Source of the DNA: Eledone cirrhosa
Taxonomy: Eukaryota
NCBI GenBank assembly: GCA_964016885.1
Contig: OZ024741.1
Location: forward strand, 142,786,001-142,850,000
Length of the DNA: 64,000 nucleotides
Direction of reading: 5' to 3'
Shown here: positions 31,193 through 64,000 of the stretch, in pieces
Layout: the number at the start of each line of letters is the position of its first letter
Position numbering within the stretch: the first letter of the stretch is position 1
Position numbers and translations under genes: made by a program
Notes under the pieces: model-generated
The model's database searches: none
The model's input: only the letters and a program-made list of their open reading frames with translations
What the model was told of the DNA's origin: nothing

Positions 31193-31220
<28 letters not shown>

Positions 31221-31223
<3 letters not shown>

Positions 31224-31411
31224 GAAGGAAATGTGGTAAGGAACCAGGTGGACCATAACGCACCAAAGTACTCAATACTTGAGGTAGTAGAGTGGGTAAT
31301 AGGAACCAGTAAGACCCCGACAGCTGAGCTCAAGCCGTTTCGACAGCTAATTCTCAGAATTAGCCGTCGAAACGGCTTGAGCTCAGCTGTCGGGGTCTTA
31401 CTGGTTCCTAT
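31221..31411 (-). mobile_element. Second H2 fold-back element, inserted in (TA)n
   Basis: Palindrome 31299-31411 centred at 31355; tail identical to the reverse complement of 14516-14593; (TA)n on both sides. Confidence 0.8.
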
Positions 31412-38117: not shown

Positions 38118-38962
38118 CTGTTAGAATTAACATTAAATTAAATACAAGATTTTTTTAAAAACCAATACGGGTGTGCATGTGTGATGGTCATGGCTGGAAC
38201 GCCGATCAGACGTCTGCTCAAACAGAGCTGTCCTGGGGTTAAACAACAATACACACTAAATTTGTCCATATGCTTAGCTTTAAGTCAACCTTGATTTGGG
38301 TAGCTGCAAGGCGTTCCAGTCATGACCATCCAGTCCATATTTTTCTCAGTTTATCTGAAGCTACGTTGTTAAATGTGATCTTTTATTTATAATATAGGAA
38401 GGTGTTATATAGTAGCAAATTTGTGTTTTAATAAATTTATAGATTACCCCACTCAATTTCAGTGGGAAAGAATGTTTTTCTCGTTTATTTTTCGTGTGCT
38501 ATCAACTAATCTAACATTAAAGTTGATGGCAATCGACTTTTTTCCTCGGACATCGGAGAGGGTGTAGTGCCCCCTCCTCTCCTCGGAGTTTTCTCTACAA
38601 TTTTTCCCCCACGTGTTATCAACGACTAGGACCTCCAAACCACTTGGAAACGACTAGATTTGTAGAAAGTAGAGCGAAATGGGGCGAAAAGACCACTGGT
38701 GTTTTGCAGATCTACACACATCTCGCATTTGGCGGGAAATAATTATCTTTCCTTGTTTTTTTCTGAACCTCTTAGATGCTTGCAATCGACTGTTTTCCCG
38801 GAAAACGGAAACCTTAACACCTCCCCCCTGGTGAGGGAGGTTGCAAAGCATCTAAGAAGTAAAAAAATATATATATATATTTTGCACCAAGCGCGCGTGT
38901 ATAAATAAATAAATATATATATATATAATATAAAATCAAAAGATGGTTAAAAGAGTTCCATG

Positions 38963-39033
38963 TATTTTATTATGCGCATTTCAAAAACAAATATCATCAT
39001 GGCATGATATTTGCGTTCTCATCAGATAAAATA
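38963..39033 (-). ncRNA. Type I hammerhead ribozyme (family H1), left arm
   Basis: tcatcag 39019-39025; exact reverse complement of 39134-39204. Confidence 0.85.
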
Positions 39034-39133
39034 GGGAGACACGATATGAAGCTTAAAAAACACTTGCGAGCAGTGAAGTGTCAAATCAACACTTCACTGC
39101 TCGCAAGTGTTTAAGCTTCATATCGTGTCTCCC

Positions 39134-39204
39134 TATTTTATCTGATGAGAACGCAAATATCATGCCATGATGATATTTGTTTTTGAAATGCGCATAATAA
39201 AATA
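39134..39204 (+). ncRNA. Type I hammerhead ribozyme (family H1), right arm
   Basis: tattttat-CTGATGA(39142-39148)-helix II caaatatcat/atgatatttg-GAAA(39185-39188)-tgcgca-TA-ataaaata. Confidence 0.85.
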
Positions 39205-39944
39205 CATGGAACTCTTTTAACCATCTTTTGATTTTATATTATTTATACTCCAGTCCTATAAACTGTTGAGTGCTACTTATCCGATATTTGCATTGCTTTA
39301 TTGTGCTACAATAAAACTCACTTCCTACATATATATATATATAATATATATACACACATACATGACGTATTATGATTGATTACTGTTGTGAATAGTTGCC
39401 TGGTTTACAGACTTAGAAGATGATAAGGCTTCAAGAATGTTCCATTTTCTTGAGAGACAGCAGATTAGGTAGGTTTTTTTTTTTTTGTGGGGGGGGGGGT
39501 TAGAATTAAATGACATTAAATGAAATAGTGAGATAAGTGGTGGGATTACAGACGCACACACCGCCATGACACAAAAAAGTGAGATATATTAGATACGGGA
39601 GAATCGGAAAGAGAGATTACAAATGTGACATTTTTGGAATGTCAAAAGTGTGTATGTAACGGATTTTGATGACGAAATCCAGTGATTATTAAATTTAGTG
39701 TTAAATGTTAGTGTCTTACGAAAGTAATCAGAAAATGTAAAAGAGAAGGAAATTGCTCTACATACAACTTAACACTAGATAAAATAACATATATAAAATC
39801 AAAACGAAAGAAAATATTAATTCAACACTGTCGAAACAAAAATGAAAGAGCATACAAGGAAACCGTTTAGTTAGTGATGGAGGCTTAACATGATAAACGA
39901 AAGAAAGTGAAGTTTCACTTGTACGTATACATCATTAAAAACCA

Positions 39945-57775: not shown

Positions 57776-58165
57776 CTAGATCTACCAGATCATTTATTTT
57801 TTACTCTTGACTGGTGTATCCAGTTTGGAATAGGTATATCATACCCCTGCGTGTAGTAAGAAGTGACTAAAGCGTTGGTGTCATGAAGGGCATCTGGCTG
57901 TAAAACATTGCTTCAAAAAGTCCCGTCCAACCCAAGCTAGCATTCAAAAGTGGACAAAAAAAAAAAAACGATGATGATCATGATGACATATTTTCCAGAC
58001 CATACCACCTTTAAAAATGCAGGAACATTAGTTGAACTGCGTCTGGATAAAACGGACGTGATAGTCAAGGCTGGCACGTCTTTGTTCATATGTCTATGCA
58101 CATATTACAATTAAGGCCAAAAGGCATGCTTGGAAAGAATGGCGGAATGGGGGAAGTAGAGAACA

Positions 58166-58738
58166 CTATCTGGTGGCTAGGAGAGAAGCACAATCAGTAA
58201 AACAAAGATGTGGTCCGAACGTGGAAGGGCCGAAATCCCACTGCCATCGCCTCCATCTCTCTAGCCCTCCCCATCTCTCTGTATGGTGAGCAAATGGGGT
58301 CCCGCGTGCTGGCCTCCCCACAGCACCGGCAGACAGAATGGAGAAGGCGTTTTCCCGGAGGATGGTAAGGGAGCTGCGCTGGAAGAGCCATTTCAACCTG
58401 CGGCTGGCAAACTCAGTGCCTATGGTGGTGAGTAGGGAGGTAGCACTAGGGCCAAGGACACCATAAGTCTCCACTGCCAAGAGCACGACCGCAAACCTGT
58501 CGGAGAGCGACCGGTACTTGGAGAGTTTGGCCTCCTCAGCCCGACGTGCAACAGAACCTGGGTTAGTCGCAGACTGCACCAGGTTGCGGCTGGAGAAAGT
58601 GTCGCTGCAAGTGGCATCCCAGACGAGGGGTTTGCCACCGCGGAACGGGATGATGGTCATACTGTCTGGCCTTTTGACGTCCCCTCGGTCCAGCCCCACC
58701 GGTTCGAGCTGGGAGGGGAAGCCTGCAGCATCCAAGCC
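58166..58738 (-). mobile_element. CRE-like non-LTR element 3' fragment with restriction-like endonuclease
   Basis: EPVGL...KRPDSMT...LVWDATCSDT...AEEAKLSKY...LAVETYG RLE motifs. Confidence 0.85.
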
Positions 58739-58739
58739 A

Positions 58740-59965
58740 AGATAACTTGTCTAAGACTAAAGTTCTAGTGTGTAGAAAGGAAAATAGGGCACAGGTTCCC
58801 TCTGGGAAATGGCCATGCTCAGTATGTAGGAAAGGAGTAGCTAGAAATCCCATTCTATGTCCCAAATGCAAGCTATGGGTCCATAAAATATGTAGTGGGA
58901 TCACATGCAAATTATCAAAGAATGTAGGTTTTATAAATGGCCGATGCTCAGGTGCAGTAAGTAGCAAGTGCCCACTGAATACTAGCTCCTTCAACTGCCC
59001 AGATGGTTTTATAGAAATAGTAGACACTTTCTGTTACCTGGGTGACAAAATCAGCAGTGGAGGAGGGTGTTCTCAAAGTACAGTAGCCAGAGTGAGAATG
59101 GGATGGAAAAGGTTCAGAGAGCTTATACCGCTGTTGGCCACAAAAGGTTTCTCTCTAAAAATGAAAGGCAGATTGTATGATGCTTGTATACGAACAGCAA
59201 TGTTACATGGTAGTGATACCTGGGCATTGTATGCAGAGGACCTGCGCAGATTGGAAAGAAACGAAGCATGCATACTGTGTATAGTAATATACACAAACAT
59301 TAAAGCATAAACGAACTAAGTGAGAAATTAGGCATAAGAGGGATCAGATGCAGTTTACTAGAAAGGAGATTGCGTTGGTATGGTCATGTGATGCGTGGCA
59401 ACTGTATAAAAAGGTGCAGGGCGATCAAAATTGATGGAAGCTGCGGAGTAGGTAGACCCAGAAAGACCTGGGACGAGGTGATAAAAGCTGACCTTGCACA
59501 CTTGAACCTCTCTAAGACAATGACACAGGATCGAGATCTTTGGCGTTACGCAGTAATACAGAAGACCCGCCTTGTAGGTACCTCTTAATCCAATATACTC
59601 CCTACACCCCTACATCCCACACACCCCACACCTCCCTCTCACTTCTGCCCACACCACCCTTATTCTGTAAAATTATATTGGTACCACAAAACATCCAGCC
59701 CACACTGTAAAGTGGTCGTGTAGGTGTCACGACAAAACGCACCCAAAAAGCACCCAGTCCACACTGTAAAGTGGTCGTGTATGAGACACGTTAAAAAGCA
59801 CCCAGCACACACTGTAAATGAGGTTGGCGTTAGGAAGGGCATCCAGCCTTATAAACATTCCTATACGAGTGAGACACAGTCACCCAACCAAATTTGCTTC
59901 AAATGAGACAAACCCGTCTAACCCATGCTAGCGTTGAAGATAGACGTTAAATGATGATGATGATG
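58740..59965 (+). mobile_element. RTE LINE 3' part with a PHD-like Cys/His insert, followed by a triplicated tail motif
   Basis: SKTKVL-GKWPCSVC..CPKCKLWVHKICSG-VDTFCYLG...RWYGHVMR...GRPRKTW; (GAT)n end. Confidence 0.85.
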
Positions 59966-60562
59966 ACACTCACACACACATATACACACAAACATATACA
60001 CACACATATGCATGCCCAGATACATAAACACACATGCGCGCACACAAGGTCAGTCCTTTGAGTTACATGCTGAGTTCAGGCAACGGGCTTCCAAACTGTC
60101 TAATTACGTTCACAATGCTTGTGTTGACCCGTGGCTATGGTAAACGAACTTCTTAAACAAGGAATCCCAAATACGCGACCTTCGGTAGAATAAAGGAAAA
60201 TTTGAAACGGAAAATTTGTCCCCCTATATTTTGTACTAATTTATATACGTATTAATTTTGTTGAAATAAATAAATAATTAAATAAATAGCAGAATATCGG
60301 CTGTATTGCAGATTAACACTATAACTTGTGGAAATCACGACCCTCATATCATCTAACGTTTGGTCAATTGTGATGTCAGCCAAGACGTAATGGCCGTTTG
60401 GACTCGTTGAGTTTAAGAACCCTTCTTAAACCATGCGGCCAGGCTGTGTCAATATTAAAGTAAAATTATGTAAAAAACAAAACGAAGTAGTCGAGTAAAT
60501 GGCCCTTTCTTCATAAAAAATTAAATTTATTATATCAATTTTTGATGTACGATAAGCGTTTT

Positions 60563-60810
60563 GAAGGCGCGTGACTTAGTGGTTAAGGTGTTGGACTTAC
60601 TATCATAATGTCGTGGATTCAATTCCTGTACCGGGTTGTGTGGTGTGTTCTTGAGCAAAACATTTAATTTCACGTTGTTCCAGCTGAAGATGATTAACCC
60701 TGCGATGGACTGGCGTCTTATCCAGTGGGGAAGCCTTTTACTCTCAGTTGCACCGGGGAAACCGGGATAAGCACCGGTTTAATAAGCCTCCGGGATTGAG
60801 ACAAATTTTA
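60563..60810 (+). mobile_element. SINE family B-related copy
   Basis: tgacttagtgg A box, ggattcaattcc B box, cttgagcaaaacattt centre. Confidence 0.7.
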
Positions 60811-61575
60811 GATAAACTGTTTAAACGACAACAGTGGAATCATGTGTGTTTGGTTGTTTGTGTTCGAATGTATTGACCAACAGTAATATCACGTCAAAGG
60901 CGCTCGTCCGCTCTGGCCCAGTTGATCACCGACACACATCCACACACACATGCGCGCACACAGACACATGCACTCACTTACACACATGCACATGTACATA
61001 CACACACACACGCGCGCATGCACAAACACTCATACACACAAAAAACATGGACAGAGAAAAAAATGTAGTCTTTTGACCTGACTCGGCTGTCTTATGCTCC
61101 ATACTTGGGATTCTTGAGGTTTCTTAAAAAAATTGAACATAGTTACTGGATTTTACAGTTTCTTTGCTTGTTTTTCTTGTGTTCTGCTTTTTACTGTCGT
61201 TATTCTTTTCTCGTTCGTTTGTTTTTGTAGTGCTTTTGTATGGAATGTGGTGGTGATATTCTTAAAGTAACCACATTGGTTTGGTGTGGTGAGTCCTAGT
61301 TGGAATGGCTTGAGAAGACAGTGAGCGGCCGAAATTACCTCAGCAATTTCATTTCTAGACAAACGCTGGCCGCCATCGAAACGCGAAATAAGGAAAGAAT
61401 ATATGTATGTGTGTGCGTGTGTGTGTTATGTGTGTTTGTGTGTGTGTGTATATATATATATAGTAATTTCAGAAGATCCCGTAATAGGGCGAAAGCAGCG
61501 AATCTTTGCTTAAACTTTAATCTGTACTAATAATAGATATATGTTGTTATTTCTGTTTACCTTTCACACACACAC

Positions 61576-61616
<41 letters not shown>

Positions 61617-61667
61617 AACAAGAAAACTTTTAAGATTTTATTTTGCTCTGACTGTCTATCCATATAT

Positions 61668-61779
61668 GGATTGTACCCTTGATAAGTTCGGCTAGATTCC
61701 CGCTGTTCGAATACTGGCGCTTCAATTCGGATATAGCTGTCGAAACGACCGGAGCTCAGCCGTCGGGGTTCCTGAATCT
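61668..61779 (+). ncRNA. Candidate hammerhead ribozyme with variant core TTGATAA (U3:A8)
   Basis: ccc-TTGATAA(61679-61685)-g..cggcta/tagctg..c-GAAA(61742-61745)-cg..gagctc..c-GTC(61762-61764)-ggg; distal ggatt/aatct pairing. Confidence 0.6.
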
Positions 61780-61817
61780 TTATATATATATATACACGCA
61801 TATATATATATATATAA

Positions 61818-61929
61818 AGATTCAGGAACCCCGACGGCTGAGCTCCGGTCGTTTCGACAGCTATATCCGAATTGAAGCGCCAGTATTCGAACAGCGGGAA
61901 TCTAGCCGAACTTATCAAGGGTACAATCC
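61818..61929 (-). ncRNA. Mirror copy of the U3:A8 hammerhead candidate
   Basis: ttatcaa at 61912-61918; reverse complement of 61668-61779. Confidence 0.6.
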
Positions 61930-62056
61930 ATATATGGACAGACAGTCAGAGCAAAATAAAAACTTAAAAGTCTTCTTGTTTATATATATATGCACCTGTA
62001 TGAATGAATATGTGTACGTGTTAGAGTATGGTTTGGTAAGCCAGTTATTAAAGCAT

Positions 62057-62258
62057 TGAGTGAGTGGGAAAACGGTCATATCCGGTAGAGGGTCGGACGC
62101 TATGCTTTGCAGCATAGAGTTATGACCCTTTGCGTTCTCAGTTCAAATCCCGCCAAGCTTAACTTTGCCTTTCATCCTTCAATAAAATAAAGTGCCAGTA
62201 ATGCACCGGGATAATTGCTGGCCTTGTGCCAAAAGTAGAAACAATTATTATTATTATT
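62057..62258 (+). mobile_element. SINE family A copy followed by (GAA)n
   Basis: Matches 55516-55708. Confidence 0.75.
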
Positions 62259-62294
62259 GAAGAAGAAGAAGAAGAAGAAGAAGAAGAAGAAGAA

Positions 62295-64000
62295 CGGGAC
62301 GTGGGAACCCCGAACGTAAAACCCACTTCAAGACTTTTAAAGGGATTCCCAAAAGAAACCCCACCAACTATGGAGGTCGAACCACCCGACCTTCACAAGA
62401 GCCCGGAAGGTAAGTAAACCTTTCCTCTCTCTCTTTTTAACCTGCCAACATGGCCGTATTAAGAGTAGGAAGTTTAAATGTTCGAGGCCTGGGATCGTCC
62501 TGGAAGCAGGGTCATCTACTCAACGACCTCAGGTCTCTAGAAATGGATGTAATTGCCGTCAGCGAGACCAGGATTTCCGACACGCGCGCACCAGCCCCCA
62601 TTTTCGACGACTATCAGATCTTTGCATCTGTTAACCGGTCGGGAATGGGAGGCGGGGTGGGAGTGCTGTTTAGGAAAGGCCTGGATCTCGAGGTAAGGTT
62701 GATCTTCCGGGATCCGGACGGGAAGTTGGTGGTCCTGGACGTGAACAATAACGAAGGTGGTGCCTTTAGACTGGTGGCCGTCTATGCCCCTACTGGGGCA
62801 GGACGGCCGGACTTCTTTAGACGCCTGGAAGCCTTTCTGGGTACGTCTCGCCCTTTACTGTTAGCGGGGGACTGGAACGGCATCTTAGACGCACTCTGGG
62901 ACTGTGTGGGAGTATCCGATAGGAGCGGGGGGTGCAAAAGCCTCAAGAACATGATCAGCCAGTTCCAACTGTCTGAAAGGTACCGACTAGATTTCCCTAA
63001 TGCGCCAGTGTGGACCTGGACTAACCCCATAGGGTCATCTAGTTCGTATATAGACAGGATATTCATTAGGAAAATAGACAGAAATAGTGTAAGCTGTCCA
63101 CGTTTTAAAACGGTTGCCTATTCAGATCACAAGTTTGTGATCTGTATGGTCGACCTAGATAAGACGCGTAGATTAGGACCTAGTTACTGGAAGCTGAACT
63201 GTCATTTCCGGCACGTAAGGCTTACAGGGACCAGGTCAACAATTTAGTTAGGAAAAAGTTGACAGGGGGAGGCGTCAACAATAGATGGTGGGGGGCTCTC
63301 AAAAGAGAGATTAGAGTAATGTCGATAGAGCTTAGCAAAGAAGTAACGTTAGAGAAAAATAGAAAGGAGGGGGAGTTGGTAGATAAGTTAGACGAGGCTA
63401 TTGGTAGTGGCATTGCAACTGACGTGCTAGCGGCGAGAATGGCATTAGACCATTTCTTCAATGCGAAACACGAAGGTTGCATTGTCAGAGCTAAGGCGCT
63501 TGCTCTGAGAAACGAGGGAACCAAAGTTGTTCGATGGGCCCGCGTGGCAGAGGCGCAGCGTGGTAATAAAACCACGATTCGGTTTTTGGCGGACCGAGAC
63601 GGACACGAGCTGAGCGATTCCAAGCGGATGTGTGAGGCCTTTCGCCAACATTTTGCTCGGTTGTTCGGGGGAAGTGGCGGGTCAGAGACGGTAGCGGACT
63701 TCAGTCCCTACCTCGATGGCTTGCCGCAACTCTCGACGGCTGACGCTGGGCGCTGCGAAAGGCCAATTACTTCAGCTGAGATTCAGGATGCCCTTGTCGG
63801 CTGCATGAGGCGCAAGTCACCCGGTTTGGATGGTCTGCCCTACGAGCTTTACGTAAATATGCCAGACTTGTTCTCCAATCTCCTCGAAGTCCTCTACTGC
63901 AACTGGCAGCAAAACGGGAGTATTCCCAGTTCTGTGAGCCGGGGCGTAGTGACGCTGATAAGGAAAGACGAGAACAAGAGGGACACATTAGACAATTTCA
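62295..64000 (+). mobile_element. Second, diverged Tx1/L1-like family (ORF1 end plus ORF2 endonuclease and linker; runs off window)
   Basis: ORF2 ATG at 62450: MAVLRVGSLNVRGL...GDWN...SDHK...YWKLN, frameshift near 63200, then KSPGLDGLPYELY; collinear with 8457-6930. Confidence 0.9.

Follow-up and report, generated by a model that had tools for sequence, protein, structure and literature searches.

The systems closest to the one described here are hammerhead ribozyme motifs carried by Penelope-like retroelements. Craig et al. (2021) describe a Hydra clade of such elements that uses (TA)n targets and leaves inverted, 5'-truncated copies, and in every Hydra row of their File S2 the core is C3:G8 (CTGANGA), helix II is short and loop III has 0-3 nt (PMC8557442). 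The same source calls the function of Penelope hammerheads unclear and suggests that they could be passengers (PMC8557442). Minimal hammerheads with a U3-A8 core were reported by Cervera and De la Pena (2014) in Cercyon Penelope-like elements of Schistosoma mansoni; this motif, in which helix III is small or absent and A9 is followed by an additional base, gave ~1,300 genomic matches, mostly single truncated copies, with opposite-strand pairs lying 100-700 bp apart (PMC4209133). Perreault et al. (2011) reported natural U3-A8 core variants, which they state were active in vitro in earlier work (PMC3088659). With regard to the 3-8 pair itself, a full pairwise scan of one hammerhead is reported to have found rescue by the G3:C8 swap only (PMC9901934), and a natural CUGANAA hammerhead from a schistosome is reported to have been inactive when tested (PMC8490949). 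Cleavage by the PAc (Poseidon) hammerhead of Anolis needed protein and, according to the same report, was dispensable for insertion in vitro (PMC11167929).

The window analyzed here is a 64,000-nucleotide stretch (contig OZ024741.1, 142,786,001 to 142,850,000) of the 3.0-Gb genome of Eledone cirrhosa. It contains an inverted repeat (61616-61794 and 61803-61981) whose arms differ at 3 of 179 positions and enclose an 8-nt loop within a (TA)n tract. The left arm (61616..61780, plus strand) is separated from the right arm (61817..61981, minus strand), its inverted duplicate, by the (TA)n spacer that forms the center of the palindrome (61781..61816); a second (TA)n tract flanks the left arm on its outer side (61589..61615), and the right arm is bounded, at a truncation point identical to that of the left arm, by a shorter tract (61982-61991). 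The left arm holds a type I hammerhead motif (61676..61767) in which helix I joins 61676-61678 to 61765-61767, the core U3-U4-G5-A6-U7-A8-A9 (TTGATAA, the family majority) occupies 61679..61685, helix II spans 61686-61741 and is closed by G10.1 (61686) and C11.1 (61741), G12-A13-A14-A15.1 (GAAA) follows at 61742..61745, and helix III spans 61745-61763; G16.2-U16.1-C17 (GUC, 61762..61764) would place the predicted cleavage site after 61764. On the minus strand the corresponding positions are 61918-61912 for the core, 61911 for G10.1, 61856 for C11.1, 61855-61852 for GAAA and 61833 for C17 at the predicted cleavage site. The initial annotation had read TTGATAA, G10.1-C11.1, GAAA and GUC in both arms, and the sequence bears this out directly. 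Its description of helices I and III as short or imperfect is equally accurate and, if anything, understated, as helix I has 3 pairs and helix III an A·C mismatch at 61748; helix II of the window arm is also mismatched, by a G·A at 61733. The pair is flanked by very high-depth short repeats (62082-62250 and 61470-61537) that are probably other interspersed elements, and further downstream lies a broken non-LTR retrotransposon ORF (62441-63999, plus strand) with a PF03372 endonuclease/exonuclease/phosphatase domain (E 2e-15), which is unrelated to the pair.

Searching the genome with an arm yielded 2,615 candidate matches, and among the 40 of these that were scored, 39 places outside the window are 81-89% identical to it. 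Similarity among the copies extends 5' of the motif, whereas the 3' end is reached at (TA)n just past the motif or after a short tail; the copies are thus inserted at (TA)n with the hammerhead motif near their 3' end. Longer copies run upstream, on the same strand, into a broken RT and GIY-YIG-like ORF whose end lies ~1.2 kb upstream; its tblastn matches are RT and endonuclease-like ORFs of loci collected for this analysis, and these are unannotated ORFs rather than reference Hydra proteins. YRDD precedes the YIG motif in the longer copies, whose ORFs are broken, DKT is present at two loci (L189 and L165), RLRWR at two loci of the sister family (L165 and L166), CxCX5C at four (L185, L186, L167 and L169), and CxxC and CxH in several of the longer copies. 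From its ORF motifs, (TA)n target and tblastn alignments, the element appears to be a Penelope retroelement of Hydra-clade type; we label it 'Hydra-clade-like' because two of its ORF pieces gave 0/2 matches to Pfam and the assignment was made by motifs and tblastn. The left arm is the 5'-truncated 3' end of such a Hydra-clade-like element, and this fragment is without an ORF. Two other identities were considered and rejected, namely a non-LTR retrozyme, since the copies come from the ends of a coding element and lie dispersed, with one direct pair among 24 neighbor pairs, and a minimal Penelope hammerhead, since helix III has 5 bp and G10.1 follows A9 directly, with no extra base. A young subfamily identical to the arms was likewise rejected, as the best other copy among the 40 candidates scored out of 2,615 is 89% identical. 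The window holds two further short 3'-end fragments of the element, both starting inside helix II (14464-14613, plus strand, and 31201-31349, minus strand). Elsewhere, other long Penelope-like ORFs were seen as open frames of 558 aa (L032, minus strand) and 488 aa (L170); the latter, of another type, carries a GIY-YIG-like domain at its C terminus and is nested among hammerhead-bearing ends.

By its modeled anatomy, the family motif is a hammerhead. Its helix II comprises ~56 nt and its helix III 5 bp with a 9-nt loop, and the residues U4, G5, A6 and A9, G12, A13 and A14, the A15.1-U16.1 and G10.1-C11.1 pairs and an H at N17 are intact in both arms and in the subfamily majorities, in agreement with the hammerhead-type motif first proposed. 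Six subfamily majorities fold as the three-helix form with an open helix I, the active fold lying 1.6-4.6 kcal/mol from the ensemble in nearest-neighbor calculations that ignore tertiary contacts and protein; 3 of 9 groups gave no foldable majority. Across the six, U4, G5, A6, A9, G10.1, C11.1, GAAA and GUC are invariant, N7 is T, G, A or C, and double changes are found at two pairs of helix II. The palindromic GAGCTC of loop III (61752..61757 in the left arm) is kept in both sister families and is constant in all subfamily majorities while the adjoining bases vary; such a palindrome would permit helix III to be swapped between two RNAs, giving a swapped dimer. Pairing is preserved in 89.6% of 376 cells in 21 distinct hand-picked copies. 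The covariation control on these related, hand-picked rows is modest: the score was reached by 8 of 500 shuffles, and the number of double-changed pairs by 370 of 500. The Rfam hammerhead models gave no match at E up to 10 in window positions 58000-64000 or at four other loci, so the motif does escape canonical searches, as had been predicted. Sub-threshold Rfam matches to microRNA hairpins were rejected, being caused by the palindrome and (TA)n.

Like the Hydra-clade hammerheads of PMC8557442, the motif is of type I, lies near the 3' end and is sense to an ORF with RT and, at its C terminus, GIY-YIG, and the elements share the DKT, CxCX5C, CxxC and CxH motifs, the (TA)n targets and the inverted 5'-truncated copies. 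Unlike the Hydra rows of File S2, the present family is mostly U3:A8, its helix II measures ~56 nt and its 9-nt loop III holds a palindrome. The U3-A8 covariant core in a Penelope repeat is shared with Cercyon (PMC4209133), from whose motif the family differs by its full helix III, very long helix II and absence of the extra base. The variants of Perreault et al. contain the identical compensatory U3-A8 change, and in the available text they are presented as isolated examples, without a series of subfamilies in all four Y3/R8 states (PMC3088659). PAc is also a Penelope hammerhead and its 3-8 pair has been tested, with engineered mutants of a canonical C3:G8 core (PMC11167929), whereas mismatched cores in the present family are natural and occur in amplified lineages.

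To survey the core states, a 17-nt pattern over the core was matched exactly against the genome, giving 3,518 matches as compared to 1 for the reversed control, so the motif does not arise by chance and the family has at least 3,518 copies. The pattern favors young copies, admits only C or T at position 3 and A or G at position 8, and counts copies rather than events. Within these bounds, 2,772 copies are U3:A8, 673 are C3·A8, 59 are U3·G8 and 14 are C3:G8, so that C3 occurs in 687 copies and G8 in 73, 14 of them with C3, and CTGATGA in a single copy. A Watson-Crick 3-8 pair is therefore present in 2,786 of 3,518 copies (79%) and broken in 732, and the two positions are unassociated (odds ratio 0.98, Fisher p = 1.0). 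Comparison of the copies confirms TTGATAA as the family consensus: with a pattern that left positions 3, 4, 7 and 8 free and gave 217 matches, 77 of the 100 listed read TTGATAA and none CTGATGA, and among 17 copies picked by ORF end U3 is found in 15 and A8 in all 17. The first refuting case named by the initial annotation, a CTGATGA consensus, is thereby excluded. The initial annotation had argued that the U3:A8 double change preserves the pair of the active hammerhead. The window pair is indeed U:A, but rescue of activity is not assured by it, as the pairwise scan of PMC9901934 reports it for the G3:C8 swap only. Nor is the U3:A8 core itself new, as natural cases appear in PMC3088659 and, for Penelope elements, in PMC4209133.

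Judging from trees of the fetched copies, the mismatched 3-8 states are lineages rather than noise; these trees use 167-358 columns that include some non-homologous flank, and their branching order is only moderately supported. The fetched C3·A8 copies carry a true T-to-C substitution with intact helices and form a clade (UFBoot 93) with internal substructure inside U3:A8 relatives. Of the first 100 C3 copies listed, 90 have CTGAGAA as their core and 93 have G7; examples of C3·A8 (CTGAGAA) are L145-L149, L165, L166, L168, L172, L173 and L179-L182, and several C3·A8 copies are associated with ORFs that are broken yet of near full length. Each of the two sister families contains U3·G8 clades (UFBoot 91 and 97), with subfamilies at L095, L101, L103, L111, L100 and L098 in family A and at L125, L128 and L159-L164 in the sister family. 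The C3:G8 copies of family A lie among U3·G8 copies and were reached either by substitution (L103 and L111) or by loss of one T (L098 and L100). Nested in the C3·A8 clade is a very young, nearly identical U3:A8 (TTGATAA) subfamily (L167:3609 and L177:2387), which offers the most promising entry point in a search for a recently active element.

Genomic copies decay neutrally: in the 17 copies picked by ORF end, differences from the majority amount to 20/235 in the core versus 182/1,820 outside it. The suggestion that a covariant core reflects selection for activity is accordingly unsupported, given this equal decay and the lack of association between positions 3 and 8 in the 3,518 copies. In the window arm, a C is missing from helix I and a T has been gained next to it, and the bases found in most family contigs at its two mismatched positions, 61733 and 61748, are C and G. 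The active fold of this arm is 14.0 kcal/mol uphill, as compared to 1.6-4.6 for the subfamily majorities, and when folded without constraint the left arm does no better than shuffles (z -0.24). The arm ranks 13th of 15 in per-copy folding, a weak ranking because 58 of 73 family A copies are unscorable, missing the anchoring motif or the closing pair. The GGATATAG variant of the arms is found in 3 of the first 100 of 167 matches listed, two of which are the arms themselves. As the whole palindrome folds as one hairpin of 179 bp (-323.9 kcal/mol), the motif would be buried on either strand in read-through RNA, with the ribozyme held in a long duplex. Among the RNA runs searched for the stretch, none of Eledone cirrhosa matched, and six rows came from other organisms with shares of 0.05 or less. 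The window pair is predicted to be inert; the claim of a functional ribozyme pair is unsupported, as the two arms amount to a single decayed copy and each would sequester the other.

Our preferred reading, held with considerable confidence, is that the pair derives from a single decayed 165-nt piece of the 3' end of a Hydra-clade-like Penelope retrotransposon, with the element's hammerhead motif, that was likely inverted-duplicated at its flanking (TA)n after decay and is predicted to be inert. In 137 nt, 12 differences from the family majority are common to both arms and 1 is arm-specific, so the arms are a single observation, a dependence that the initial annotation had rightly cautioned about. 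That the palindrome is an assembly artefact of fold-back reads seems scarcely credible: the arms differ at 3 sites, and in a short-read run (X1) a common 97-nt contig of depth 12 splits into two contigs of depths 6 and 6, one of them with three differences, a split repeated in a second run (X2; 8 = 3.8 + 4). Both arms thus have their own single-depth contig beside the double-depth common one and are probably really present in the genome, although X1 and X2 represent one sample, possibly the source of the assembly, and no contig spans the whole palindrome. Coverage in a RAD-seq run (X21) is confined to repeat-derived parts of the stretch. It is also very improbable that the pair is a selected bidirectional unit that cuts transcripts of either strand. 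The core is complete in both arms, as in only 25 of 96 family A copies, and U3-A8 ribozymes can be active (PMC3088659), but the helix lesions are common to both arms, the two arms count once, each strand carries its own antisense within ~50 nt after the motif, and the RNA-run search gave no Eledone cirrhosa match. More weight, though still little, is due to the possibility that the arms were inserted together as an inverted structure and later homogenized by arm-to-arm gene conversion. Inverted copies are reported to be typical of these elements (PMC8557442), and both arms share a single truncation point. Gene conversion is possible between the arms of close palindromes, and the common lesions fit duplication after decay and a conversion-homogenized old inverted insertion alike. 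The usual insertion pairs look different, however: among the first 100 of 3,518 matches listed, 20 of 24 neighbors within 5 kb are head-to-head, the arrangement of the inverted 5'-truncated copies described for these elements (PMC8557442), and the 3 tail-to-tail ones are at least 2.9 kb apart. The head-to-head pairs mostly diverge independently: of 24 that overlap by at least 90 nt, 21 have more arm-specific than common changes. Close tail-to-tail pairs with at least 90 nt of overlap have 12 common and 1 specific change in the window, 13 and 5 at L073, 4 and 4 at L065, and 0 and 20 at L109, the last showing that not all of them arose as the window pair did. Similar fold-backs also occur in unrelated DNA; 41 inverted duplications, many outside the element, were found in 471,934 bases of loci (L003-L143) chosen for containing the element, and short inverted duplications are common in this genome. 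One unrelated palindrome lies in the window itself (38920-39247), with 164-nt arms that are 96% identical and a center that is not (TA)n. The tail-to-tail form was probably produced by local fold-back or template switching at the self-complementary (TA)n, or by later arm-to-arm conversion, rather than by the element's usual insertion pattern.

A different question is what the motif does in the source elements. One answer, which we regard as a serious possibility while leaning against it, is that the motif is kept as a structural signal, for protein binding, priming or RNA end protection, with cleavage dispensable and the 3-8 pair drifting by transitions. The 673 C3·A8 and 59 U3·G8 copies among 3,518, at an odds ratio of 0.98, would fit such drift, and the C3·A8 copies are a structured clade with intact helices. 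Consistent with this, the natural CUGANAA hammerhead is reported inactive (PMC8490949), and single 3/8 mutants of the Anolis Penelope are reported to have lost cleavage and kept in vitro insertion (PMC11167929). Several observations pull the other way: every other catalytic position is invariant between subfamilies, 79% of copies retain a Watson-Crick 3-8 pair, and both the young U3:A8 subfamily inside the C3·A8 clade (L167 and L177) and the C3:G8 copies arising inside a U3·G8 clade look like returns to pairing. The GGA subfamily of family A has C3 in 9 of 23 matches, and copy counts are not independent events. Set against that purely structural role, we envisage that in the source elements the motif would adopt the type I hammerhead fold, in which helix II is long and helix III has 5 bp, and would probably cut after GUC, weakly or helped by the element's protein, to trim the retrotransposon RNA. 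Since C3·A8 and U3·G8 source elements multiplied as well, the 3-8 pair would be under no more than loose constraint. Tentatively, and with a confidence just short of even, we propose that a Hydra-clade Penelope lineage reached at least 670 copies via several successive sources with a C3·A8 core, keeping its other catalytic bases and its helices. This would mean either cleavage-free spread in vivo or a long-helix-II hammerhead that tolerates a broken 3-8 pair, for example by G7 slipping into the role of G8, and the genome would then present all four states of the active-site pair (U:A, C·A, U·G and C:G) as a natural series. A literature search, whose coverage of subscription papers was thin, found no amplified natural C3·A8 family.

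The U3:A8 core variant has already been published, and the window pair is likely an ordinary dead repeat fragment. What is new is that a Hydra-clade-like element has both a U3:A8 core and a very long helix II, and that hundreds of copies form a lineage in which the 3-8 position is unpaired. The presence of a broken core pair in about one fifth of the copies suggests that the element can spread without efficient self-cutting. The C3·A8 lineage, and not the window pair, is the interesting part, as it makes the need of Penelope elements for ribozyme cleavage testable, and the subfamilies amplified with paired and unpaired 3-8 states provide ready-made natural variants. Should the C3·A8 form cut, an exception to the accepted core rules would be needed; if it does not, the lineage would be in vivo evidence that spread needs no cleavage.
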